A DNA stretch of 55,764 bases, taken from Candidatus Moranbacteria bacterium RIFOXYA12_FULL_35_19 (GTDB taxonomy: Bacteria; Patescibacteriota; Minisyncoccia; Moranbacterales; UBA2206). A model generated the notes under the pieces. That model had not been told where the DNA came from, made no database searches, and saw only the letters and a program-made list of their open reading frames with translations. Where the stretch lies: contig MFSE01000013.1 of NCBI GenBank assembly GCA_001784805.1, positions 1 to 55,764 on the forward strand, read 5' to 3'. Shown here one piece after another: positions 1-55,764 of this stretch. Both the position numbers and the translations under genes were made by a program. Every line of letters begins with the position of its first letter. Position 1 is the first letter of the stretch.

Positions 1-1450
1 AATTAAATAGAAATGTCATACCTTTGCGTTTAGTTAAAATGTCATACTTGTGGAAATTTATGAATTATGGACTAATTGTCTTTGTTCGAATTGAGCCGAT
101 ATTTGTTTTCTCCAAGGATGATTAGCGGGTGGCATCCAAGGAGCTTTGCTCGGAGTGAGAGCAACTAATTTAGTCTTAATCTTTTCCGGTCTGGCAGGTA
201 ATTTTTTAAAATTCAAATACTTTTCTTTTTTGCTTAAATGAATCGATCCATCTAATCTTTCTTCAATTAAAACTAGATCTTTTTTGTAAACTGTGGTGGG
301 TTGAATTTCATCTAGTTGGTACCAAATGTTTTTAAACTGCACAGTAAAATCATTTTTAATTTGTCTTTGGGATTGGATAGAGAATATCTTATCTAGATTA
401 GTTTGGTCGTGTTGAGTTAATGGTTTATGCAAATTAGTATCTTTGGTTGGGACTACAGAAAATCTATTATTAAAATCCTGAATAAATGTTTCTTCTAAAA
501 ATTCATTGGCTGTTTTAGTATCGCTGATATTTTGGAGTCTCAATTCTTTGACTAATCTATCTTGCAAGGTTTCAAATAGTCTTTCAATTCTTCCTTTGGC
601 TTGGGGTGAATGAGCACTAATCAAATTGATATCTAAATCATTGCAGGCTCTTTGAAATTGAGTGAGTAATTCGTGATTATCGGTGGCATTTTTGTGATTC
701 ACCTTGTAGGTACTGAATTTATCGAGATAAATCGCTACGGGCTTGTTTTTAGCTTGGAGGTAGTCTTTCCAGAAGTTAAAGACTTCTACCACACCTTCGT
801 TTTTGCCAAAATTTAGTTTAGTGATTTTTCCGGTGGCGTCATCAATGGAAGCCAGGAGACAAACCTCCTTATTCCCATTTCTTTTTTCAAGCCATTTATG
901 ATAACTGCCATCAAACTGTTGCATTTCTCCATAACATTCTTTTCTTTCCCGCCAAGCTCGATGTTGTTGGTTTTGTTTTCTCTTTTTTGTTTTGAAAAAT
1001 TCTTCTTCAATCATTAAGTTTCTAATGGTGGTTACTCCCAGATTGATTTTATGAATCTCCATCAGTTTTTCTGTAGCTAGTGTTGGTCCGAAATCTGAAT
1101 AGTTTTTCTTGATTATTTTTTTAACTTTCCTCTTTAGTTTTTCTTCAATTTTGTTGTGGCTTACTTTGCCTCTCAGTTTATGGATAATTCCTTGGGTGCC
1201 GTCCTTAATCACACTAGATTTTAGTCTTTTGGTTTGTCTTATAGAAAGATGTAGTTGCTTGGAAGCATCAGTGCCATTGATCTTTTCAGCGATTAAATTG
1301 TTAATGATTGTGAGTCTCTCCGCTTCTTTATTTGTCATAGTGATTATGGATTGTTCCATTGTATTGGGTCTTAATAATTAACCCAATATTTTAGCAGGTA
1401 TGACATTTTAATAAAACGCTACTATGACATTACTACTTATTTATGACACA
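1..1450 (-). mobile_element. Insertion sequence, ISNCY-like; outer left boundary may lie beyond the window edge
   Basis: One rve/DDE transposase ORF bracketed by inverted copies of AAATGTCATAC. Copies lie at 11-22 and 36-49, with the reverse complement GGTATGACATTT at 1397-1408. Degenerate TATGACA copies lie at 1423-1429 and 1442-1448. Confidence 0.6.
58..1359 (-). CDS. DDE (rve-type) transposase, ISNCY-family-like
   Basis: 433 aa. N-terminal HTH region, then catalytic-core-like segments SIDDATGK, YLDKFSTY and AHSPQAKGRIERLFETLQDRLVKELRL, typical of integrase-core transposases. Confidence 0.7.
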   Translation of the reverse strand: MEQSIITMTNKEAERLTIINNLIAEKINGTDASKQLHLSIRQTKRLKSSVIKDGTQGIIHKLRGKVSHNKIEEKLKRKVKKIIKKNYSDFGPTLATEKLMEIHKINLGVTTIRNLMIEEEFFKTKKRKQNQQHRAWRERKECYGEMQQFDGSYHKWLEKRNGNKEVCLLASIDDATGKITKLNFGKNEGVVEVFNFWKDYLQAKNKPVAIYLDKFSTYKVNHKNATDNHELLTQFQRACNDLDINLISAHSPQAKGRIERLFETLQDRLVKELRLQNISDTKTANEFLEETFIQDFNNRFSVVPTKDTNLHKPLTQHDQTNLDKIFSIQSQRQIKNDFTVQFKNIWYQLDEIQPTTVYKKDLVLIEERLDGSIHLSKKEKYLNFKKLPARPEKIKTKLVALTPSKAPWMPPANHPWRKQISAQFEQRQLVHNS

Positions 1451-1468
1451 CCAAAATTATCCCCAGCT

Positions 1469-1582
1469 TTATCCCCCACCACTTTTTTTATTATTATTCA
1501 ATTAAATTCAGTTGGCTAATTGAAAAATTTAAGTTTATAATTTTCATATAAACATCCGCAAACAAAAAGTGGTGGGGGATAA
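1469..1582. repeat. Perfect 19-bp inverted repeat with a 76-nt structured spacer
   Basis: TTATCCCCCACCACTTTTT (1469-1487) is the exact reverse complement of AAAAAGTGGTGGGGGATAA (1564-1582). The spacer holds an inner hairpin TTCAATTA/TAATTGAA. Confidence 0.7.
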
Positions 1583-1622
1583 ATTTGATAATCTGGCGAT
1601 AATCTTGTAGATTAGATGATAT

Positions 1623-1710
1623 GGAAGCGTGCCAGAGTGGCCGAATGGGGCGGTTTCGAAAACCGCTGTCGCCTCACCGGCGACCAGAGGTTCGAATCCT
1701 CTCGCTTCCG
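1623..1710 (+). tRNA. tRNA-Ser (anticodon CGA)
   Basis: Hand-folded cloverleaf. Acceptor GGAAGCG/CGCTTCC, anticodon stem GCGGT/ACCGC with loop TTCGAAA, long variable arm, T-loop TTCGAAT. Confidence 0.85.
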
Positions 1711-1768
1711 CCGCCTTTACATTGACCCTATTAAATGCTAGCCTAAAAGAAGTTAGTTTTATAAAATC

Positions 1769-2296
1769 ATGCTTACTATCGAAAATTTTATCCAAAATAA
1801 TTTATTTGTCATAACCTCCGTTTTTTCCGGTCTTTTTTTGGTTTTTCTTTTTTGGCTAATTTTTCTTCAAATCCAGCTTGCTAAAATAAAGAAAAAGGCT
1901 AAAACTTTTTTCGCAGAAAGTTCCATAAAAAACATCGAGGAACTTATTATCGGCCATTCCAAAAGTCTAAAAATTCTCGACAAGGATATTCAGGAACTTT
2001 ATACCATCTCCAATCAAATCAATAATTTGGCTTTTCGCGGATTCCACAAATTCGGTCTTATCCGTTTCAACCCTTTCAAAGATGTCGGGGGCGATCAAAG
2101 TTTTTCCTTAGCTTTGCTCAATGGAAAAAATGACGGTATTGTCCTTTCTTCTCTTTTTACTCGCGAAGGAACTAGGATTTATTCCAAAACAATAGTTTCC
2201 GGCCTTTCAGAAAAATATCCTCTCACCGATGAAGAAAAAGAAGCGATAAAAAAAGCTCTCCTGCCACCAAAAATTAAAAAAAATGATAAATCTTAA
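1769..2296 (+). CDS. DUF4446-family membrane-anchored protein
   Basis: N-terminal TM helix. Core GLIRFNPFKDVGGDQSFSLALLNGKNDGIVLSSLFTREGTRIYSK matches my recollection of the DUF4446 signature. Confidence 0.55.
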   Translation: MLTIENFIQNNLFVITSVFSGLFLVFLFWLIFLQIQLAKIKKKAKTFFAESSIKNIEELIIGHSKSLKILDKDIQELYTISNQINNLAFRGFHKFGLIRFNPFKDVGGDQSFSLALLNGKNDGIVLSSLFTREGTRIYSKTIVSGLSEKYPLTDEEKEAIKKALLPPKIKKNDKS

Positions 2297-2320
2297 TAAA
2301 ATTTACATCTCTCAAACTAA

Positions 2321-4096
2321 ATGATCAATGAAACTTCCAAAAAAATATCTCTCCCGCAAGCCATCACTGTTAAAAAATTCAGTGAGGTTTTGAAAATGCC
2401 TCTCAACGCAATTATCACTGAACTGATGAAAAACGGAATTTTAGCCACTATTAATGAAAAAATTGATTTTGAAACAGCATCAATCATTGCTCAAGATTTA
2501 GGTTTTGAAGTTTCTGAAGAAGCAGTAGATCTTGGAGAAAAAATGACTTTAGAAAAACTTAATGAAGAAATAAAAAAAGAAAAAGAATCCACCGATGTTT
2601 TGAAAAGTCGTCCGCCGATAGTTACAATTTTGGGTCATGTTGATCACGGAAAAACTACCCTTCTGGACACTATCCGAAAAACTAATGTTGCCGCCAAAGA
2701 ATCTGGCGGAATCACCCAACATATAAGTGCATACCAAGTCAAGAAAAAAGGTCAACTCATTACTTTTGTTGACACTCCAGGGCACGAAGCTTTCAGCGCT
2801 ATGCGCGAACGAGGCGTGAGCATTGCTGATATCGCTGTCCTTGTTGTGGCCGCTGATGACGGAGTACGCCCGCAAACCAGAGAAGTTATTGAATATCTTT
2901 TAGCCAAAAAAATTCCCACTGTTGTCGCGATAAATAAAATTGATAAACCGGAAATAAATATTCAAAGAGTAAAACAAGAATTGGCTGATGCCGGAATAGT
3001 TCTGGAAGAATGGGGCGGACAAGTGCTCTCGGCCAAAATCAGTGCCAAACAAAATATTGGCATCGATGATCTTTTGGATAATATTCTCCTCATCGCTGAA
3101 GTGGAAGATTTTCGTGCTAATTATAAACGCGATCCACTCGGTATTGTTTTGGAATCACATCTTGATCCGCAAAAAGGACCTGTGGCAACTGTTCTTATTA
3201 AAACCGGCACCCTCAAAGAAGGTCAGGATATCATTGCCGGTTCCGACCGTGGCCGGATAAAAAGAATTGAAGATTTTCGAGGAAACCGGATTTCTGAAGC
3301 CACTCCAGGAATGCCCATAAGTATCATTGGACTCCATCACACTCCCAACTCTAATGATATTTTGCAAACAGCTCCAGAAAAAACCCAGAGCAAATCTCAT
3401 TCTCAAGGGGGGCTTTTACAACAATCGCCGGAAGAATCTTTTAGCTCGCAAAAAATGATGCGTTCAATCGCTTCAGAAAAAATAAAAAGATTGAATATTA
3501 TTTTAAAATCGGATGTCCAAGGTTCACTGGAAGCTATCGGTCAAATTTTAGGCGAGATAAAATCCGAAGAAGTAGCCATTGATTATATAAAAACCGGTGT
3601 CGGAAACATCACCGAATCCGATGTCCGTTTGGCAGGAAGTTCCAATGCAATTATCTACGGATTCAATGTGGAAACTACGCCTGTTGCCAAAAGAATGTCC
3701 GAGACATCTAAAACAGAAGTCAAGAATTATAAAATTATTTACGAGCTCGTGGAAGATATTAAAAATAAACTTATCGCAATGCTTCCGCCAATTATCGAAC
3801 GAACTGACTTTGGAAAAATGAAAGTCTTGGCGCTTTTCAAAACCGGCCGTGGCGATATGATTATCGGCGGAAAAATATTAAGCGGAAAAATGTCCAACAA
3901 ATCTCTTATCGAAGTAATGCGCGGTGAAGCTGTCATCGGCCAAGGAAAACTCAATAATCTTCAAGAAAATAAAGTTGATGTGGATGAAGTTACTAGCGGA
4001 AAAGAATGTGGCATTACCTTTTTAGGCAATACCAAAATAAAAGAAGGTGATGTGCTTTTAAGTTATAAGGAAGAGGTGAAGAAAAGAACACTCTAA
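2321..4096 (+). CDS. infB: Translation initiation factor IF-2
   Basis: GTPase motifs GHVDHGKTTLLD, DTPGHEAF and NKID, plus the C-terminal IF-2 domains. Confidence 0.95.
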   Translation: MINETSKKISLPQAITVKKFSEVLKMPLNAIITELMKNGILATINEKIDFETASIIAQDLGFEVSEEAVDLGEKMTLEKLNEEIKKEKESTDVLKSRPPIVTILGHVDHGKTTLLDTIRKTNVAAKESGGITQHISAYQVKKKGQLITFVDTPGHEAFSAMRERGVSIADIAVLVVAADDGVRPQTREVIEYLLAKKIPTVVAINKIDKPEINIQRVKQELADAGIVLEEWGGQVLSAKISAKQNIGIDDLLDNILLIAEVEDFRANYKRDPLGIVLESHLDPQKGPVATVLIKTGTLKEGQDIIAGSDRGRIKRIEDFRGNRISEATPGMPISIIGLHHTPNSNDILQTAPEKTQSKSHSQGGLLQQSPEESFSSQKMMRSIASEKIKRLNIILKSDVQGSLEAIGQILGEIKSEEVAIDYIKTGVGNITESDVRLAGSSNAIIYGFNVETTPVAKRMSETSKTEVKNYKIIYELVEDIKNKLIAMLPPIIERTDFGKMKVLALFKTGRGDMIIGGKILSGKMSNKSLIEVMRGEAVIGQGKLNNLQENKVDVDEVTSGKECGITFLGNTKIKEGDVLLSYKEEVKKRTL

Positions 4097-13958: not shown

Positions 13959-14213
13959 TTATTTTTCTAAAGAATATTTTAATCTTTCTTTCAATAAATC
14001 TCTTTGTTGATGAGTTTTTAAAAAATATTCTCTTTCTGTAGCATCTTTCTTGTCTTTATAGGCCTCGTAATAAACTAGAATAAAAGGCACTCGAGATTTA
14101 GTTGATTTTACCGTCCCCTTATTATGATCTTCAAATCTTTTCCTTAAATCCGTCGAGTATCCTATATAAATATTTTTGTCTTTTTTACTCTGCAAAACAT
14201 AAACATAATACAT
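13959..14213 (-). CDS. GIY-YIG nuclease family protein
   Basis: MYYVYVLQSKKDKNIYIGYSTDLRKRFEDHN, a classic GIY-(10-11)-YIG N-terminus. 84 aa. Confidence 0.85.
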   Translation of the reverse strand: MYYVYVLQSKKDKNIYIGYSTDLRKRFEDHNKGTVKSTKSRVPFILVYYEAYKDKKDATEREYFLKTHQQRDLLKERLKYSLEK

Positions 14214-14242: not shown

Positions 14243-14276
14243 GGTCTGGCTACGCCAGATCTGGCGTAGCCAGACC
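14243..14276. repeat. Perfect 34-bp palindrome
   Basis: GGTCTGGCTACGCCAGA|TCTGGCGTAGCCAGACC. Each half is itself a 6-bp-stem hairpin. Confidence 0.8.
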
Positions 14277-22495: not shown

Positions 22496-22536
22496 TTTCG
22501 TACTTTCGTATTTCGTTTATTTCGTATTTCGTAAAA
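22496..22536. repeat. TTTCGTA-word repeat (half element)
   Basis: TTTCGTACTTTCGTATTTCGTTTATTTCGTATTTCGTAAAA. Same word family as 41713-42174, 44998-45085 and 48101-48147. Confidence 0.6.
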
Positions 22537-30683: not shown

Positions 30684-32264
30684 CTATTCTACCCAATACT
30701 TCTTCTTCATTAATTCTTCCTCCTCTTTTTTTTCTTCTTCAATTTTTTTCTTAGCCATCACGCGAAGATCGTTAAGATCTTTTTTATTTAAAGCTTTCGC
30801 CAAATTTAATAAATCTTTTTTATTATTCAGTTTTTGATCATCAATCACCTCGGCTAGCATCACATCCAAGATTGCCCCGATTTTTGGTCCGGGTTGGATT
30901 TTTAAATCTTGAATTAGATCATTGCCATTAATTGCAAGCTGTTTAACTGAAATGGCATCATGCGAAACTTTTTCTACCATGAATTTGAAATGGCGCAGTT
31001 TGTATGGCACGGCTTTGGCCACGCCTGAACCCAACCGATCAGCAATTCGTACATCGATTAAATCATTGATATTTTCCACGCCAACTTTTTGCACTACCCG
31101 ACGCACACCTGATTCACCCACTTCATCTATGTTGTAGTAGAACATATGATTTTTCACAAGCATCACAGTTTTCTCAATAATTTTCCGAGGATATTTCATC
31201 CGTTCCAAAATTTTCTCCACCATTTTTGCCCCAACATATTCGTGCGAATAGAAAGTTGCCATTTCTCCCTCGCCTCTTTTTGATTTCGGTTTTCCAATGT
31301 CATGCAAAAATGAAGCCAAGCGCACTTCCAATTTTTCTGACGGACATTTTTCCAAACTTGCAAGAAGATGGGCATAAACCGTATTGTATGGTCCAAAATA
31401 ATGATGACGGTTTTGTTTCACGCCAATAGTTCCCAAAATTTCAGGAATAAAATAATCGATCAATTTTGTTTCCATTAAAAGTTCCACGCCCTTGCTTGGA
31501 TTTTTTGAAAGAATTATTTTATCAAATTCATCTCTAATTCTTTCGATTGAAACATATTTTAGATTTTTAGCATTTTTCTTAATCGCCTCGAAAGTTTTTT
31601 CTTCAATCTCCCATTCGCCTTCCCCCTTCTCCTTTATAAGGAGAGGGTTGCCCGCCTGCCGGCGAGGCAGGAGGTGAGGTGTATTTCTTCCGAGCTGAAC
31701 AGCGAAACGGATCGCTCTCATCATCCGAAGCGCATCCTCATCAAATCTTTCCCCCGCCTCCCCCACCGCGCGAATTATTTTATTCTTAAGATCTTTTTGC
31801 CCGCTGAACAAATCGATAATTTCATATTTGTTTTTTGTTTCATATTTCATGTTATATGTTACATGAATTGCCATAGCATTCACCGTAAAATCTCTTCTCG
31901 AAAGATCTTCTTCCAAAGTTTTGGCAAATTTCACCTCGTCTGGATGACGCTTGTCAGAATATTTTGATTCAATGCGATATGTCGTTATTTCCACATTCGG
32001 CCCATCCCAATCTTTTTCTTCTACGCCCTCAATATATTTCAAAGGCAACATCACTGTCCCAAAATCATTTTCATATTTCCCATCCGGAAAAATTTTCAAA
32101 ATCTCTTTCGGCTTCGCATTAGTCGCCACATCCCAATCCTTCGGATCCGCTCCCAATAATAAATCCCTCACACATCCACCCACCACAAACGCCTCAAAAC
32201 CAGCCCCTTCGAGCTTTCCAATAACTTCTATTATATAATGTGGAAATTCTATTTTTTTAGTCAT
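30684..32264 (-). CDS. cca: CCA-adding tRNA nucleotidyltransferase with HD domain
   Basis: GGCVRDLLLG and RRDFTVNA head-domain motifs, then an HD domain (FLHDIGK). 12 of the 13 tRNA genes here lack an encoded CCA. Confidence 0.85.
   Translation of the reverse strand: MTKKIEFPHYIIEVIGKLEGAGFEAFVVGGCVRDLLLGADPKDWDVATNAKPKEILKIFPDGKYENDFGTVMLPLKYIEGVEEKDWDGPNVEITTYRIESKYSDKRHPDEVKFAKTLEEDLSRRDFTVNAMAIHVTYNMKYETKNKYEIIDLFSGQKDLKNKIIRAVGEAGERFDEDALRMMRAIRFAVQLGRNTPHLLPRRQAGNPLLIKEKGEGEWEIEEKTFEAIKKNAKNLKYVSIERIRDEFDKIILSKNPSKGVELLMETKLIDYFIPEILGTIGVKQNRHHYFGPYNTVYAHLLASLEKCPSEKLEVRLASFLHDIGKPKSKRGEGEMATFYSHEYVGAKMVEKILERMKYPRKIIEKTVMLVKNHMFYYNIDEVGESGVRRVVQKVGVENINDLIDVRIADRLGSGVAKAVPYKLRHFKFMVEKVSHDAISVKQLAINGNDLIQDLKIQPGPKIGAILDVMLAEVIDDQKLNNKKDLLNLAKALNKKDLNDLRVMAKKKIEEEKKEEEELMKKKYWVE
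31619..31683. repeat. GC-rich palindromic module block inside cca
   Basis: CCCCTTCTCCTTTATAAGGAGAGGG + CCCGCCTGCCGGCGAGGCAGG + AGGTGAGGT, the same modules as at 36087-36162. Encodes TPHLLPRRQAGNPLLIKEKGEG on the minus strand. Confidence 0.7.
31838..31868. repeat. CATG-word element inside cca
   Basis: GTTTCATATTTCATGTTATATGTTACATGAA encodes HVTYNMKYET. Confidence 0.55.
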
Positions 32265-35234: not shown

Positions 35235-37115
35235 ATGATGAGTTTAATTTCTAAATTTTGGAATAATTTCAAAAATCAACCAGACATTTGGTTCTTTTTT
35301 GGGTTTTTATTAACTTTTACGCTAAGTATTAGGAAAGTAGTGTTATACTTTCTAATCCAAGGAACTTTCAATGAATATTCCGGAGTATTTATCTACCTTT
35401 CAGATGTTTTTCTAATTTTAACTCTAGTTTTCTGGTTTATATCTATATTATGCAATGATTTTACTGTTTTGTCAAGGTATAGGTTGTGGATAAGTAGTGC
35501 TTTCCACAAGTTATACATATTTTTACCCCTATTTTTAGTTTTTCTTTCTTTTATATCAATATTATGGTCACCCAATCAGTCAATAGCACTTTTTCGATCA
35601 TTCAAGCTTTTGGAGTTTTATTTACTATATATTTATATTATTTTTAGATTTGCTCCACAATTGTTCCACCCGCCTCATCGGCGGACAAACGTGGAACAAA
35701 ATACACCTCATCCTAACCTTCTCCTTATTAAGGAGAAGGAACTTGCCCCCCTCTCCTTTATAAGGAGAGGGGCTGGGGGTGAGGTAGAAATTGTTCCACG
35801 TGGAACATTTAATGCTTTCTCTTGGATTATAATACTATCCGGTCTCTTTCAAGCCACAATTGGCATAATTCAATTTTTCCTGCAAACATCTGTTGGTCTT
35901 TTTTTCCTTAAAGAAAGCCTAATTTCACCAAACATCCTCGGGGTCGCCAAAATAATCTTAAATGGAGAAATATATATCCGCGCCTATGGCCTTATGCCAC
36001 ATCCTAATGTTTTGGGTGGATTATTGCTATTTTCTATTATTATCACATTATTATATAAAAAAATGTTCCACGTGGAACATCAACTGCCCCCCTCTCCTTT
36101 ACAAGGAGAGGGGCAGGGGGTGAGGTTAAGCGATGTTCCACGCCCGTCTGCCGGCGAGGCAGATGGAACAATTAAAGAAAAATATTATTCTATGCTAAAT
36201 TGTTCCACGTGGAACAATTGGATAATTGAAAATAATTGGTTTTTTAGGCTCATATTAGCTATTCAAATTTTAGCGCTAATTTTAACATTCTCAAAATCAG
36301 CCATAATTGGGCTATTAATTGCTTTAGCTTATATAATTGTTCCATGTGGAACATTCAATATTCCCTTCTTCTTTATAAGGAGAAGGGCTGGGGATGAGGT
36401 ATGCGATTGTTCCATGTGGAACATTTTTGGGCGGGTGGAACATTTGAAATTAATAATACTCTCGATCTTAATTATTTTAGTATCTATATTTATCATAATC
36501 AAACCCAATTTGAACTCTTTATTTTTTAACTCCTTCGATGAGCGCGTATTTTATCTAAATGTTCCACGTGGAACATTTGGGAGTGATCCAGTCTTAGGAA
36601 TTGGCGCAGGACAATCAGTTATAATGATGCAAAAATTTTATTCTCAAACTTTAGAATTCTGGCAATATCAGCCTATTCATAATGTTTTTCTGCTAATATT
36701 TAGCGAACTAGGATTGCTTGGGTTGGGATTATTTGTTTGGTGGTTATGGAAATTGTTCCACCCGCCTCATCGGCGGACAAGCGTGGAACAATTTAAAAAT
36801 TCACCTCATCCTAACCTTCTCCTTATTAAGGAGAAGGAACTTGCCCCCCTCTCCTTTATAAGGAGAGGGGCAGGGGGTGAGGTTAAAATTGTTCCACGTG
36901 GAACAATAGAAAATAATGACTACATATTACACAATAATAATACATATTTGTCAAGTGCTATATTTTCTCGATATTTTACCGGAATTCTTTTAGGCCTCAT
37001 TTTTATTATGCTTTTTGACCATTATATCTGGGATATCCAACAGGGAAGCCTCCTATTTTGGCTAACTGCCAGCTTTGTTGCTGGGATATGCAAAAAATAT
37101 TCCCTTCATAATTAA
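35235..37115 (+). CDS. O-antigen ligase/polymerase-like (Wzy_C) membrane protein with five in-frame repeat blocks
   Basis: Many TM helices. FSKSAIIGLLIALAYI, GIGAGQ and HNVFLLIFSELGLLGLGLF resemble O-antigen ligase family motifs. The ORF stays open across all repeat blocks. Confidence 0.6.
   Translation: MMSLISKFWNNFKNQPDIWFFFGFLLTFTLSIRKVVLYFLIQGTFNEYSGVFIYLSDVFLILTLVFWFISILCNDFTVLSRYRLWISSAFHKLYIFLPLFLVFLSFISILWSPNQSIALFRSFKLLEFYLLYIYIIFRFAPQLFHPPHRRTNVEQNTPHPNLLLIKEKELAPLSFIRRGAGGEVEIVPRGTFNAFSWIIILSGLFQATIGIIQFFLQTSVGLFFLKESLISPNILGVAKIILNGEIYIRAYGLMPHPNVLGGLLLFSIIITLLYKKMFHVEHQLPPSPLQGEGQGVRLSDVPRPSAGEADGTIKEKYYSMLNCSTWNNWIIENNWFFRLILAIQILALILTFSKSAIIGLLIALAYIIVPCGTFNIPFFFIRRRAGDEVCDCSMWNIFGRVEHLKLIILSILIILVSIFIIIKPNLNSLFFNSFDERVFYLNVPRGTFGSDPVLGIGAGQSVIMMQKFYSQTLEFWQYQPIHNVFLLIFSELGLLGLGLFVWWLWKLFHPPHRRTSVEQFKNSPHPNLLLIKEKELAPLSFIRRGAGGEVKIVPRGTIENNDYILHNNNTYLSSAIFSRYFTGILLGLIFIMLFDHYIWDIQQGSLLFWLTASFVAGICKKYSLHN
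35661..35807 (+). repeat. Composite palindromic element A1 (147 nt, 49 codons)
   Basis: GTTCCAC[21-nt hairpin]GTGGAAC, then CCTTCTCCTTATTAAGGAGAAGG, CCCCTCTCCTTTATAAGGAGAGGGG, GGGGGTGAGGT and TGTTCCACGTGGAACA. Confidence 0.85.
36063..36218 (+). repeat. Composite palindromic element B
   Basis: ATGTTCCACGTGGAACAT, then CCCCCCTCTCCTTTACAAGGAGAGGGGCAGGGGGTGAGGT, then GTTCCAC[GCCCGTCTGCCGGCGAGGCAG]ATGGAAC, then ATTGTTCCACGTGGAACAAT. Confidence 0.85.
36338..36442 (+). repeat. Composite palindromic element C
   Basis: Two TGTTCCATGTGGAACA palindromes flank CCCTTCTTCTTTATAAGGAGAAGGGCTGGGGATGAGGT. An inverted half-copy GGGCGGGTGGAACA follows. Confidence 0.8.
36558..36577 (+). repeat. Solo palindrome AATGTTCCACGTGGAACATT
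   Basis: 20-bp perfect palindrome encoding NVPRGTF. Confidence 0.8.
36753..36905 (+). repeat. Composite palindromic element A2 (153 nt, 51 codons)
   Basis: Near-identical to A1. It differs by a few substitutions and one 6-nt indel. Confidence 0.85.
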
Positions 37116-41452: not shown

Positions 41453-41713
41453 TTATTTTTCTAATAAACTTTTCATTTGCTTGGTTGCGTCTTGAATAGA
41501 TTCCTTTTGAACGCTCAAATCTTCTATCACTTGGCTATTTAAAATATTTTCTTTTTCCAAATCATCCGTATTTTCAAATTGAGCAGAAAAAGAAATCATC
41601 CAAATTATCAAAATAAAAACCATTCCAAAAGCCGTGAGTCCCCATGCCCAACGCAAGCGGACATGTTCCGGCTGTCTTCTAATTTCTTCTATTTTATCAA
41701 ATATATTCATCAT
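41453..41713 (-). CDS. Small membrane protein (86 aa)
   Basis: One TM helix ([21 protein letters not shown]). Lies immediately upstream of gyrA. Confidence 0.5.
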
Positions 41714-41747
41714 TTACGAACTACGAAATGAGCGAAATACGAAAATT
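41713..41747. repeat. TACGAAA-word hairpin arm (left arm around the GxxExxY gene)
   Basis: TTTACGAACTACGAAATGAGCGAAATACGAAAATT. Its terminal 15 nt are the exact reverse complement of 42160-42174. Confidence 0.7.
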
Positions 41748-42140: not shown

Positions 42141-42174
42141 TTTCGTAATTTCGTATTTTTTCGTAGTTCGTAAA
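42141..42174. repeat. TTTCGTA-word hairpin arm (right arm around the GxxExxY gene)
   Basis: TTTCGTAATTTCGTATTTTTTCGTAGTTCGTAAA. Confidence 0.7.
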
Positions 42175-44997: not shown

Positions 44998-45085
44998 TTT
45001 ACGAACTACGAAATGACCGAAATACGAAACATTTAAAATACCTTTCGTACTTTCGTATTTAGTATTTATTTCGTAGTTCGTAAAC
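44998..45085. repeat. Complete TACGAAA/TTTCGTA word-hairpin (empty version)
   Basis: TTTACGAACTACGAAATGACCGAAATACGAAAC, a loop of about 12 nt, then TTTCGTACTTTCGTATTTAGTATTTATTTCGTAGTTCGTAAAC. Ends 9 nt before the rpsA ATG. Confidence 0.75.
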
Positions 45086-48100: not shown

Positions 48101-48147
48101 TTCGAACTTTCGTATTTTCGTAATTTCGTTTTATTCGTAGTTCGTAA
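48101..48147. repeat. TTTCGTA-word repeat (half element) upstream of ftsH
   Basis: TTCGAACTTTCGTATTTTCGTAATTTCGTTTTATTCGTAGTTCGTAA. Confidence 0.6.
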
Positions 48148-48149
48148 TT

Positions 48150-53738: not shown

Positions 53739-55764
53739 TTATATTTTCTTAATTGGTGCAATTGAAGCGGAAAGTTTTTTAAGTCCTGATTTAGAAAATG
53801 CTACAGTGATTATATCCCCCGCGCTGGCGACAATCAAGCCATCACCAAAAACCTCGTGTCGCACTCTATCGCCATCCTTAAAACATGAGACATGAAGCAT
53901 GAAGCATGAAACATCTTTTTCTAAAACTTGTTTATTTTCACTACTTTTATTCTTGCTACATGTTTCATGCCTGCCTGTCCGGTAGGCAGGTTTCATGTTA
54001 TATGACTTCAGTAAGTGCGGTGGTATATCGTCCAGAAATCGACTTGGCGCATTAATTTGAGTAGAACCAAAAATATTTCTCATACGAGTAAAAAGCAAAT
54101 AAACTTTTTCCATTGCCCGAGTTACCCCGACATACATCAGCCGTCTTTCTTCTTCCATTTCACCGTCATCTAACATACTTCGGGAATGGGGCAAAATTCC
54201 TTCTTCCAACCCCGCGATAAAAACAATCTTAAATTCCAAACCTTTCGCGCTATGAAGCGTCATAAGATGTACTGCATCTTTCGCTTGGTCAATATTATCC
54301 GTATCAGAAACCAAAGCTACTTCTTCTAGAAATAATCTTAAACCCTCATTACTTTCATACTCGCTATATTTTTTGGCGACCGTCAAAAGTTCGCGTACAT
54401 TTTCATTTCTCATTTCTCCTTCCTCCGTTCCATCCATCAGAAATTTTTCATATCCTGATTCGCTATAAACTTTTTGAATGAAATCCGTAAGAATCAATTT
54501 TTCTTTAAGTTCACTCATTCTCTTAATAAATTCTGAAAACTTAACTATCGCATCAATTTTAGAAATTTGTATTTTATTTTTTGGAACCTGCCTGCCGGTA
54601 GGCAAAGTTTGATCATTAGAATTTGAAAATTCATTGGAAATTGCGAGGCCACAAGATATTAAATCTAAATTATTACTCCTAGCTATATTAATCCATTTTC
54701 CCAAAGTAATATCCCCGACGCCTCGCCTCGGTTCATTAATTATTCTTTCCAACGAAGTTTCGTCATTGAAATTGTTAATCAAACGCAAATAAGCAATTAT
54801 ATCTTTAATTTCTTTTCTTTGATAAAATTTCACTCCACCAATAATTCGGTAGGGAATAGAATTTCTAAGCATTGCTTCCTCAATCATCCGTGATTGCGCA
54901 TTGGTGCGATACAGCACCACAAAATCGGAAAACTTTAGTTTTCCGTCCTGAGCGCTTGCCTGCCGATGAGGCAGGAAAGCGAAGGACCCCATCCTATTAC
55001 CGCATAACTTCTTTATTTCACTTACGATAAACTGCGCTTCTTCTTTTTCATCTTCCGCTTCAAAGCTAAATAGCAAATGTCCGCTCTTATTATCCGTCCA
55101 AATTTTTTTGTCTTTGCGATTGATATTTTTAGAAATCACGCCATAAGCCGCGTCCAAAATGTTCTGCGTGGAACGATAATTTTGTTCGAGTTTTATTATT
55201 TTTGCCTCGGGATAATCTTTTTCAAAATCTAAAATATTTTGAATGTTGGCTCCGCGCCATGAATAAATTCCTTGCCAGTCATCGCCCACCACGCACAGAT
55301 TTTTATATTTTTGCGATAATAATTTTACCAAAAGATATTGCGCATAATTAGTATCTTGATATTCATCCACCATAATATATTGGAAAAAGTTTTGATATTT
55401 TTCCAAAACTTCTGGAAATTTTTGAAAAATCTTAACTGTGATCATCAAAATATCATCAAAGTCCAAAGCGTCTTGTTCCTTCAATTTTTTCTGGTAATTT
55501 AAATATATTTTTGCCACCATTTCTTCAAAATATCCGCCCACTCCCGCTAAAAAATCTTCTGGCCCAATTAGTTCATTTTTTGCTTTGGAAATTGCACCTA
55601 AGATTGTTTTAGGTTTAAATTGATCAATATTTATTTCCATTTCTTTCATCACTTTTTTTATCAGCGCTAATTGATCTTGATCATCAAAAATATTAAAGGA
55701 ACTTTCGTATCCCACCTTCTCAATTTCCCGCCTTAAAATTTTCACACAAATAGAATGAAAAGTC
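53739..55764 (-). CDS. pcrA: UvrD/PcrA-family ATP-dependent DNA helicase; 5' end beyond the window
   Basis: MVDEYQDTNYAQY, NYRSTQNIL, MTLHSAKGLEF and YVGVTRA motifs. The Walker A region is absent because the ORF runs to the window edge. Confidence 0.9.
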   Translation of the reverse strand, partial: TFHSICVKILRREIEKVGYESSFNIFDDQDQLALIKKVMKEMEINIDQFKPKTILGAISKAKNELIGPEDFLAGVGGYFEEMVAKIYLNYQKKLKEQDALDFDDILMITVKIFQKFPEVLEKYQNFFQYIMVDEYQDTNYAQYLLVKLLSQKYKNLCVVGDDWQGIYSWRGANIQNILDFEKDYPEAKIIKLEQNYRSTQNILDAAYGVISKNINRKDKKIWTDNKSGHLLFSFEAEDEKEEAQFIVSEIKKLCGNRMGSFAFLPHRQASAQDGKLKFSDFVVLYRTNAQSRMIEEAMLRNSIPYRIIGGVKFYQRKEIKDIIAYLRLINNFNDETSLERIINEPRRGVGDITLGKWINIARSNNLDLISCGLAISNEFSNSNDQTLPTGRQVPKNKIQISKIDAIVKFSEFIKRMSELKEKLILTDFIQKVYSESGYEKFLMDGTEEGEMRNENVRELLTVAKKYSEYESNEGLRLFLEEVALVSDTDNIDQAKDAVHLMTLHSAKGLEFKIVFIAGLEEGILPHSRSMLDDGEMEEERRLMYVGVTRAMEKVYLLFTRMRNIFGSTQINAPSRFLDDIPPHLLKSYNMKPAYRTGRHETCSKNKSSENKQVLEKDVSCFMLHVSCFKDGDRVRHEVFGDGLIVASAGDIITVAFSKSGLKKLSASIAPIKKI
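53880..54010. repeat. CATG-word inverted repeat with an embedded 21-nt GC hairpin, inside the helicase gene
   Basis: AAAACATGAGACATGAAGCATGAAGCATGAAACATC (53880-53914) faces GCTACATGTTTCATG[CCTGCCTGTCCGGTAGGCAGG]TTTCATGTTATATGACTTC (53955-54010). Confidence 0.75.
54945..54987. repeat. GC-rich layered hairpin inside the helicase gene
   Basis: GTCCTGAGCGCTTG-CCTGCC-GATGA-GGCAGG-AAAGCGAAGGAC encodes GSFAFLPHRQASAQD. A degenerate copy lies at 54587-54607 (LPTGRQV). Confidence 0.7.

Follow-up and report, generated by a model that had tools for sequence, protein, structure and literature searches.

The stretch of DNA analysed here (the window; 55,764 nt, contig MFSE01000013.1 of Candidatus Moranbacteria bacterium RIFOXYA12_FULL_35_19; AT-rich, ca. 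34% G+C) carries on the minus strand, at 30684-32264, the gene cca of a class II CCA-adding enzyme with an HD domain (526 aa, open reading frame (ORF) otherwise intact), and within this gene an inserted coding segment at 31611-31688 (minus strand; 26 codons, R193-W218, RNTPHLLPRRQAGNPLLIKEKGEGEW; net +75 nt), the origin of which is the subject of this report. Pfam domains of the protein were PolyA_pol (7e-35), PolyA_pol_RNAbd, HD and tRNA_NucTran2_2, i.e., the full class II architecture; identity to Moranbacteria homologues (proteins of metagenome-assembled genomes) was 85-88%, the catalytic columns being invariant. Comparison of empty and filled DNA showed that the 26 codons replace the single F of the empty cca alleles; the peptide of the predicted translated insert is LPRRQAGNPLLIK. 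Three modules were distinguished: a palindromic hairpin H1, CCCTTCTCCTT-TAT-AAGGAGAGGG, at 31624-31647; a small GC hairpin H3 at 31650-31671 (stem CCTGCC/GGCAGG, loop GGCGA; CCGCCTGCCGGCGAGGCAGG = 31652-31671); and a G-rich, non-palindromic end, the tail, on the plus strand (GAGGTGAGGT at 31671-31680; with GTATT, 31671-31685). On the plus strand, in module order, the block reads CCTTCTCCTTTATAAGGAGAGGG (H1) + TTGCCCGCCTGCCGGCGAGGCAGGA (H3) + GGTGAGGT (tail). Folded as single-stranded DNA, 31610-31695 was better than all 200 shuffles, z = -3.7.

An earlier note on this DNA, made from the letters alone, had seen that cca and a ligase-like gene have modules in common; the copies were counted against shuffled sequence, and the observation holds. 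H1 is present at seven sites in the window (31626, 35718, 35750, 36091, 36365, 36816, 36848), and with up to 2 mismatches on both strands 14 matches were found vs 0.00 expected (100 shuffles). The H3 19-mer recurs at 36144-36162 with 18/19 positions identical (0.00 expected), and the tail has 5 copies vs 0.76 expected, a number reached by 0/100 shuffles. Beyond the cca copy, the window holds 6 further H1 + tail occurrences and 3-5 further H3 (chance about 0); all copies of H1 and tail outside cca are confined to one gene, the Wzy_C (O-antigen-ligase-like) ORF at 35235-37115 (plus strand, 626 aa), which bears most of the other module copies. The earlier note did not say what the modules are; on the present evidence they belong to a dispersed family of palindromic repeats.

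The tail is non-palindromic, and therefore it is the tail, not H1, that fixes the orientation of the element. The cca unit, H1-H3-tail on the plus strand, is oriented as the ligase units at 35743, 36084, 36358 and 36841; it is read tail-first because cca lies on the opposite strand. The opposite reading that had been noted is thus real: the cca copy shares the plus-strand direction of those at 35743, 36084 and 36841, yet the strand translated is the opposite one. The minus-strand translation contains ...RFAVQLGRNTPHLLPRRQAGNPLLIKEKGEGEWEIEE, the peptide given in the earlier note, and NLLLIKEKE is encoded at 35716-35742 as was claimed there. The inverted ligase copies, at 35698-35739 and 36796-36837, are read tail-first as well, hence NTPH...LLIKEK appears in the same frame as in cca; the codons are AAT ACA CCT CAC ... 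AAC CCT CTC CTT ATA AAG GAG AAG in cca and AAT ACA CCT CAT CCT AAC CTT CTC CTT ATT AAG GAG AAG in the inverted ligase copy, which at 35698-35739 translates to NTPHPNLLLIKEKE. The claims of the earlier note that could be tested were all upheld, with two points to refine. The likeness of the LLIKEK-type peptides had been put down to the symmetry of the hairpins; the likeness exists, but the ligase peptide comes from an inverted copy, i.e., from the same element orientation, and the similarity reaches into the non-palindromic tail, for which hairpin symmetry alone is insufficient. The block had also been said to use the modules of 36087-36162; the modules are the same, but their order is not, being H1-H3-tail in cca and H1-tail followed by H3 at 36084-36170, where H3 sits within a split GTTCCAC/GTGGAAC palindrome.

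For the comparison of cca alleles, 33 Moranbacteria enzymes were aligned and 120 homologues were scanned with a pattern (104 scorable, 16 unscored). The sequence ...RFxVQLGF-xIEEKT, with nothing between, was read in 46 homologues; the other 58 scorable ones bear 2-80 extra residues at exactly the same point, always W-terminated, so that the segment, whose conservation at the protein level would have refuted the reading of the earlier note, is not conserved among these close homologues. The closest relatives, P0007 and P0008 (88% identical), are without the insert; the empty site in L001 and L002 (P0007) is CTG GGT TTC AAA ATT. L003 and L004 (P0005, P0003) have +54 nt in the arrangement tail'-H1 (GGA AAT ACA CCT CAC CCC AAC CCT CTC CTT ATA AAG GAG AGG GGG GAA GGC GAA TGG); the window allele equals this type of insert with 21 nt more (CCCGCCTGCCGGCGAGGCAGG, H3) between H1 and tail; L125, L126 and L127 hold unrelated AT-rich repeats inside the same flanks (GGA AAT ... 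TGG). The cca site was filled stepwise, from empty LG-F to H1 + tail (+54 nt) and then by H3 (+21 nt). In a neighbour-joining tree from which the insert columns were left out, empty and insert-bearing alleles were interleaved; with this interleaving and the differing contents, turnover at the site must be rapid, through repeated insertion, allelic recombination, or the two together.

The same data bear on an alternative, that not transposition but ectopic gene conversion or recombination brought the copy into cca, the donor being the ligase-like gene ca. 4 kb away or another allele in the population and the loop behaving like a cassette. It would account for the fact that the frame SGN...xW is common to all insert alleles although their contents are of different kinds (H1 type, AT-rich CAAAT repeats, CAAGAAACA repeats), for the interleaving of F-type and W-type alleles on the tree, and for the vicinity of the two genes, cca and Wzy_C being neighbours in all relatives examined. 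Yet the unit is present in many unlinked genes and in other phyla, so a dispersal mechanism is needed anyway; a second cca loop, at about residue 140, independently gained an H1 unit in L003 (EEPHPNPLLIKERE); and conversion explains the spread of an insert between alleles, not its origin. As the source of the cca copy it is regarded as unlikely.

The same three CCA loops hold AT-rich repeats in other Moranbacteria (alignment columns 120-200, 260-320 and 370-460). These fillers, e.g., the CAAAT type, which gives NKSQITNNKQISNSKSQIQ and FQISNFKFQ, include those at the cca site of L125, L126 and L127 and resemble AT-rich repeats found between genes in the window (families D2/D11). The same CCA loops are therefore invaded by repeats of a second class. 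In L126 (Moraniibacteriota), at 1-3006, ca. 3-6 kb from cca, genes of an RVT_1 reverse transcriptase, of bAvd and of an IS630-type DDE_3 transposase were found, the first two suggesting a diversity-generating retroelement.

The position of the block in the enzyme is as the earlier note had placed it, in a helix-to-helix connection after RFAVQLG: it lies directly past the motif-D helix, at a point where solved enzymes are continuous. In a phmmer search of the PDB the match was split at query residues 191/214, with residues 192-213 unpartnered in 6ibp and 1miv, the chains of which run on without a break where the insert lies. An AlphaFold2 model (33-sequence alignment; mean pLDDT (predicted local distance difference test) 80.5, pTM (predicted template modelling score) 0.73) gave pLDDT >90 for the motif-D helix (179-190) and the later helices, and <50 without secondary structure for 194-213, a loop at the very block for which a structure prediction had been proposed; the other insertion hot spot of cca, residues 139-144, is likewise of low pLDDT. 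The model supports the insert as a tolerated surface loop.

A useful role was considered instead, either as an RNA or DNA structure (ribosome pausing at the internal Shine-Dalgarno (SD)-like AAGGAGA/GGTGAGG, attenuation, or an effect on the stability of the mRNA) or as a peptide loop with a function. The stability of the fold given above, the SD-like sequences themselves and the occurrence of the H1 insert in several lineages (window, L003, L004) are in keeping with it; against them stand the absence of the insert from the closest relatives and from 46/104 homologues, unrelated repeats at the site in sister lineages, the predicted disorder of the loop, and the presence of the same DNA in different frames in other genes, by which no particular peptide can be under selection. 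The block is thus quite improbably kept for its usefulness. More improbable still is an assembly artefact, or a cca gene decaying to a pseudogene: palindromes may confuse assemblers, but an independent ENA assembly yielded the identical protein (P0001), NCBI and ENA assemblies of other samples have orthologous H1 inserts, and the reading frame is intact, every Pfam domain being present and the catalytic residues invariant.

Translation of the insert is indicated by three observations. The net gains that can be measured are all multiples of three: 54 and 21 nt for cca and, for the ligase gene, 21 nt (window vs L125). The H1 loop TTTATAA yields a TAA stop in one of three frames, and in the window and ca. 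12 ORFs of the Candidate Phyla Radiation (CPR) only the two open frames per orientation are in use, with tail-first peptides TPHPNPLLIKERG and SPQPSPYKGEG and H1-first peptide PLSFIRRGAGGEV. The sole copy in the closed frame, at 36084, has TAA changed to CAA. The insert is therefore most likely translated, as a disordered surface loop of ca. 25 residues that is probably dispensable to the enzyme. The opposite possibility, that the block is cut from the mRNA or the protein or is skipped by the ribosome, has a precedent in the mitochondria of Magnusiomyces (PMC5009743); however, lengths divisible by three (as in every insert measured), stop-free frames and the TAA to CAA change would be needless in a segment that is removed or skipped, so that this is judged very improbable. 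A translational bypass element (Magnusiomyces type, T4 gene 60) was rejected for the same features, the inserts keeping the frame and being stop-free in that of the host. Likewise, an intron, ribozyme or intein was rejected: Rfam searches of the whole window at gathering thresholds and of 35600-36950 by E-value returned tRNAs and sub-threshold generic hairpins only, with no intron or ribozyme match, and 26 codons are too short for an intein.

In sum, the block in cca is read as one copy of a very short hairpin-forming repeat, itself non-coding, that was inserted in frame and tolerated (probability ca. 0.7). The comparisons show the insert to be, at the level of sequence, a dispersed modular palindromic repeat acquired in at least two steps, situated in a loop that many relatives lack and constrained as coding DNA.

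Copies in the Wzy_C gene showed how the modules combine. Among the orthologues (442-666 aa) the module content varies at fixed loops of the alignment. A composite palindrome at 35698-35785 (plus strand) consists of an inverted ACCTCATCC-H1 (35698-35739), a 6-nt spacer and a direct H1-GGGGTGAGGT (35743-35785); its DNA fold has -43 kcal/mol, z = -10.5. A second composite of an inverted and a direct unit, at 36796-36883 (plus strand), is 96% identical to 35698-35807 and has z = -7.4. The H1-tail unit in the closed frame, at 36084-36126 (plus strand), has the loop TAC, not TAT, giving TTA CAA (PPSPLQGEGQGV, PPSPLQGEGQG); a diverged H1-tail unit, CCTTCTTCTTTATAAGGAGAAGG ... GGATGAGGT, was found at 36358-36400 (plus strand).

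Besides these units, the ligase gene contains a further palindrome, H2 (14-22 nt; 7 intact and 3 split copies). That at 36755-36790 (plus strand), AATTGTTCCAC|GTGGAACAATT, is interrupted precisely in the middle by an H3-type hairpin of 21 nt, CCGCCTCATCGGCGGACAAGC, and the same arrangement was found at 35663-35698 and 36135-36170. At the orthologous site of 36755-36790, H2 is uninterrupted in L125; its centre holds a 21-nt H3-type hairpin in the window (CCGCCTCATCGGCGGACAAGC) and in L004 (CTGCCTCATCGGCAGACGAGC), and in L001 and L003 a larger hairpin, the loop of which holds another H2. Newer modules are therefore found at the exact centres of older palindromes, as judged by the comparison of orthologues at this one ligase site; their place at palindrome tips points to a structure-directed mechanism of hairpin or cruciform type. 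Growth of the P-nucleotide type by opening of hairpins was rejected, since the small hairpins do not repeat their flanks in inverted form; they make up a recurring CYGCC-TCATC-GGCRG family, present in both orientations. H2 (AATTGTTCCACGTGGAACAATT; 10 sites, 35663-36904) was found only within the Wzy_C gene in the window, L001, L003, L004 and L125, and is translated in all three frames (VPRGT, CSTWN, FHVEH).

Hairpins of the H3 type are also present in the UvrD/PcrA-like ORF at 53739-55745 (minus strand): CCTGCC-GATGA-GGCAGG at 54957-54977, at the centre of two outer stems (LPHRQAS), and a related one at 53970-53990, in frame (PAYRTGRH). In L031, the same loop of the UvrD orthologue holds another hairpin repeat (HPELVSKS...IPDQVRNDK) and an intein-like insertion.

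The distribution of the family was studied by scanning one genome per species with an H1 pattern from which the flanks were absent; more than 119 stretches were obtained and 119 loci were analysed. The matches listed comprise many from Nostoc, Calothrix and Rivularia, others from Bacteroidota, Ignavibacteria, Leptospirales, Dehalococcoidia, Gastranaerophilales and Zixibacteria, and, from the CPR, Moran-, Nomura-, Uhr-, Falkow- and Saccharibacteria; among them the unit is thus present in CPR and in at least six other phyla with its sequence almost unchanged. Nearly all have ACCTCACCC upstream and/or GGGTGAGGT downstream of H1, and a small GC hairpin, e.g., GTGTCCGATAGGACG or GTGCCCGAAGGGCG, often stands between H1 and tail as in the three-part form of cca. 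Listed copies outside CPR are intergenic or at gene ends; at CPR-labelled loci, 10/16 copies lie inside ORFs >150 aa. The host ORFs of ca. 12 copies, including those of the low-G+C loci L047 and L124, encode FemAB-like, UvrA, UvrC, UvrD, GltX, IF-2, PurL, PHP-domain and Wzy proteins.

Many of the cyanobacterial matches (Nostoc, Calothrix, Rivularia) are nested in longer inverted repeats, and short tandem arrays of H1/tail with a fixed spacer were seen in L115 (80-330, period ca. 114 nt) and L036 (1-120). In one alignment (A3) the row L115rc, which has wrong coordinates, is disregarded. Another hairpin-derived peptide family, CHPELVSGSS...MPKQVRHDK, occurs in frame in CPR housekeeping genes, L019 (FemAB-like) and L031 (UvrD), which indicates that several unrelated families of hairpin repeats share the habit of in-frame insertion.

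In H1, one arm is anti-SD-like (CCTCCTT or CTCTCCTT) and pairs with the other, which is SD-like (AAGGAGG or AAGGAGAG); this likeness may help to explain the similarity across phyla. Searches of the literature with the sequence strings of the repeat returned primers only, those with the insert peptides no paper, and those on palindromic in-frame inserts of CPR nothing relevant.

A protein partner was sought among the ORFs of the 119 hairpin loci by all-against-all clustering: one family, DUF559, recurred across phyla, and no transposase family did so. DUF559 was found by tblastn in 7/119 loci (PF04480, E = 1e-32 to 1e-37), and in 4 of these the units abut or bracket the gene. In L085 the gene lies inside a composite, ACCTCACC-H1-gene-H1-GGTGAGGT; L044 has the order H1-GGTGAGGT, DUF559 gene, ACCTCACC-H1; in L035 and L117 the gene follows closely on a composite; and in L046, a contig of a sister Moranbacteria genome, variant hairpins immediately precede the ATG of DUF559.

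An independent set of 80 metagenome loci was picked by alignment of the DUF559 protein alone. In 71 of the 80, a hairpin with a pyrimidine arm or a tail motif was found within 200 nt of the gene; the density of hairpins was 13.3 per kb near the gene vs 0.68 per kb elsewhere in the same loci (20-fold enrichment), and that of tails 1.20 vs 0.11 per kb. Usually the gene is preceded by a hairpin, an optional small hairpin and a G-rich tail, which stands 5-60 nt before the ATG; the stop is followed by 10-40 nt, a C-rich tail', an optional small hairpin and a hairpin. The two flanks of one gene were complementary over an exact run of at least 12 nt in 21/72 loci vs 6/354 shuffled pairs. L145 and L148, both from this set, bear the CTCTCC/GGGTGAGGT subtype of the window, and L145 has beside DUF559 the three-part unit CCTTCTCCTCCTAGGAGAAGG + TGCCCGCCTCGGGC + GGATGAGGT, as in cca. 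On these data, read from sequence comparison, the repeat family extends across phyla and characteristically flanks DUF559 genes.

Among PD-(D/E)xK nucleases DUF559 falls in the Vsr clade, and the genes are free-standing (ca. 115 aa); the nearest solved proteins are 3hrl, an uncharacterised Neisseria protein from structural genomics (E = 9e-34), and 3r3p, I-Bth0305I (E = 4e-5). No paper connecting DUF559 with repeats or palindromes was found in the literature searches.

By analogy with repetitive extragenic palindromic (REP) sequences and the genes of REP-associated tyrosine transposases (RAYT), a scheme may be offered in which the solo units derive from DUF559 elements that lost the gene, or are copies of the ends of such elements; the nuclease, acting on extruded hairpins, would spread the units in trans, with repair or copying to follow; and purifying selection would leave only in-frame, stop-free copies in permissive loops. 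This chain of events is proposed tentatively, its odds being put somewhat below even. In its widest form, held with similar reserve, the modules would be the ends of pan-bacterial minimal selfish elements, in which a DUF559 nuclease gene of ca. 115 codons is bracketed by hairpin-tail repeats; gene-less copies would be REPIN-like (REPIN: doublet of REP sequences), would target the tips of palindromes already there, with 'Russian-doll' nesting as the outcome, and in the gene-dense CPR genomes would survive mainly as translated in-frame loops of essential proteins.

Several points weigh against one or another part of the interpretation. No DUF559 gene is present in the 55.8-kb window by tblastn (uvrA and uvrC were not found in it either), and the DUF559 gene of L046 is flanked by hairpins of the CTCCCC type, that of cca being CTCTCC. 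No consistent target-site duplication was seen by eye in ca. 120 copies, and no defined cleavage site could be recognised. The orientation of the DUF559 flanks is mixed: mostly inverted, direct in L130 and L153, with the tails outward in L085. The tail often stands 5-25 nt before the DUF559 start codon and is similar to a Shine-Dalgarno sequence, so that the hairpins could be expression signals or preferred landing sites of DUF559 genes and not recombination sites. H3 in cca may be an allelic three-part variant obtained via gene conversion and not a separate insertion; the likeness across phyla could be due in part to the universal SD/anti-SD sequence and not to common descent; and the translation of the loop is read from sequence and predicted structure.

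Several of these points favour a mover other than DUF559: the hairpins would be mobile or self-propagating by means of another transposase (RAYT/IS200-like HUH, IS630 or similar) or through errors of palindrome replication or repair, and DUF559 genes would prefer hairpins as insertion sites or use them as terminator or ribosome-binding signals. The heterogeneous flank orientation, the Shine-Dalgarno position of the tail and the absence of DUF559 from the window fit this, as do the IS630-type DDE_3 transposase near cca in L126 and the DUF559 gene of L085, which occupies the centre of a composite palindrome like other nested modules. It is harder to reconcile with the 20-fold enrichment beside DUF559 in a sample selected by protein, with the mutual complementarity of the two flanks of one gene beyond that of cross-locus pairs, with the lack of any other protein family recurrent across the 119 hairpin loci, and with the absence of the GTAG/CGTC tags of RAYT-type REPs; it is considered possible, though on the unlikely side.

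Comparison with known systems was made for both the repeat and the nuclease. Rickettsia palindromic elements (RPEs; Ogata et al. 2000, summarised in PMC10969869 and PMC3733652) are ca. 100-150 bp long, confined to Rickettsia and have one conserved peptide per family, in one frame. Like them, the present unit is a palindromic selfish repeat that has entered housekeeping genes of diverse kinds in frame in a reduced genome and is most likely translated, as they are, into an extra segment where the fold allows it; unlike them, the units are of 37-75 nt, modular (H1, H3, tail) and nested at palindrome centres, occur in both orientations with two reading frames for each, and are found in many phyla in association with a nuclease gene. 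REP/REPIN sequences with RAYT, including intragenic REPs, are dispersed imperfect palindromes of 20-40 nt that form inverted doublets (PMC3116915, PMC3337134, PMC2817692, PMC3733652) and carry a conserved GTAG or CGTC tag at one end (PMC3733652). The likeness consists in a short imperfect palindrome in many copies, in the inverted doublets at 35698-35785 and 36796-36883, in a small enzyme gene flanked by the same repeats, and in occasional copies inside ORFs, notably uvrA and other repair genes. No consistent GTAG/CGTC tag was seen by eye in ca. 120 copies, the ends being ACCTCACCC and GGGTGAGGT followed by variable bases, and no Y1 transposase recurred beside the repeats in the 119 loci, where only DUF559 did (window ORFs were only partly scanned with Pfam). 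The enzyme differs, being DUF559 (Vsr-like PD-(D/E)xK) and not an HUH/Y1 transposase, as does the sequence, which is nearly constant across phyla and not species-specific; in CPR the copies are, moreover, mostly genic.

The cca block behaves as RPEs and intragenic REPs do; in sequence, size, peptide and tag it agrees with neither. Compared with a miniature inverted-repeat transposable element, the outer inverted arms ACCTCACCC/GGGTGAGGT are present, no consistent duplication was seen in the flanks, empty and filled sites have diverged too far for the junctions to be fixed, and the candidate autonomous partner is not a transposase of an insertion sequence (IS).

The small dispersed repeats (SDRs) of Nostoc, which Elhai et al. 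are said to have described in 2008 (Genome Res 18:1484; see also PMC3116915), reportedly measure 21-27 nt, are apparently mobile in heterocystous cyanobacteria, nested and occasionally genic; we know of no report of a nuclease partner, a cross-phylum range or an invasion of CPR genes for them. The SDRs may overlap with the H1/tail family in cyanobacteria.

GC clusters and double-hairpin elements are mobile palindromic repeats of organelles. The present units resemble such palindromes in being short hairpin repeats that spread in AT-rich compact genomes; the repetitive hairpin-forming elements of sponges (PMC2800124) and the palindromes of Volvox (PMC2670323) are likewise reported as repeats of organelle genomes. 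In Magnusiomyces mitochondria, short inserts at 81 positions disrupt 12/15 protein-coding genes and are bypassed in translation (PMC5009743); those inserts are likewise within protein-coding genes but break the frame, whereas the present ones keep it. On the side of the nuclease, I-Bth0305I (3r3p) is a Vsr-like homing endonuclease, part of a phage group I intron protein and proven selfish (PMC3424549). The flanked genes belong to the same Vsr/DUF559 clade as I-Bth0305I and 3hrl; unlike I-Bth0305I, they are free-standing, of ca. 115 aa, flanked by hairpins and known from sequence alone. There is a substantial chance that the association of the repeats with DUF559 is a new system.

Other repeats of the window are as follows. 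A perfect 34-nt GC-rich palindrome, GGTCTGGCTACGCCAGATCTGGCGTAGCCAGACC, at 14243-14276 lies 30 nt upstream of an 84-aa ORF, 13959-14213 (minus strand), which by eye only resembles a GIY-YIG nuclease; L003 and L004 also hold small ORFs with GIY-YIG (PF01541) matches. If this assignment is right, it would be another small nuclease gene beside a palindrome. AT-rich repeats of the TTTCGTA type (TTTCGTATTTCGTTTATTTCGTA; D9, D19, I9, I10) are present in both orientations at 22497-22535, 41713-41744, 42141-42174, 44998-45084 and 48101-48148.

An essential tRNA-maturation enzyme of a CPR bacterium would thus carry ca. 25 residues of translated 'junk' that originated in two steps from a dispersed hairpin repeat, and UvrA, UvrC, UvrD, GltX, IF-2, PurL and CCA of CPR are peppered with the same repeat. 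Repeats in frame affect the calling of CPR genes, alignments, phylogenies and structure prediction, and they provide a natural map of permissive loops. The nesting of modules at the centres of palindromes suggests a target-site rule concrete enough to test. The near-identical unit in distant phyla, together with the DUF559 association, makes a very large and long-unexplained family directly testable, the question being whether the DUF559 nuclease is specific for hairpins or cruciforms and serves to spread or maintain the repeats. If true, the reading of the modules as parts of DUF559 elements would give the DUF559 family a function and would add a second, nuclease-based analogue of REP/RAYT.

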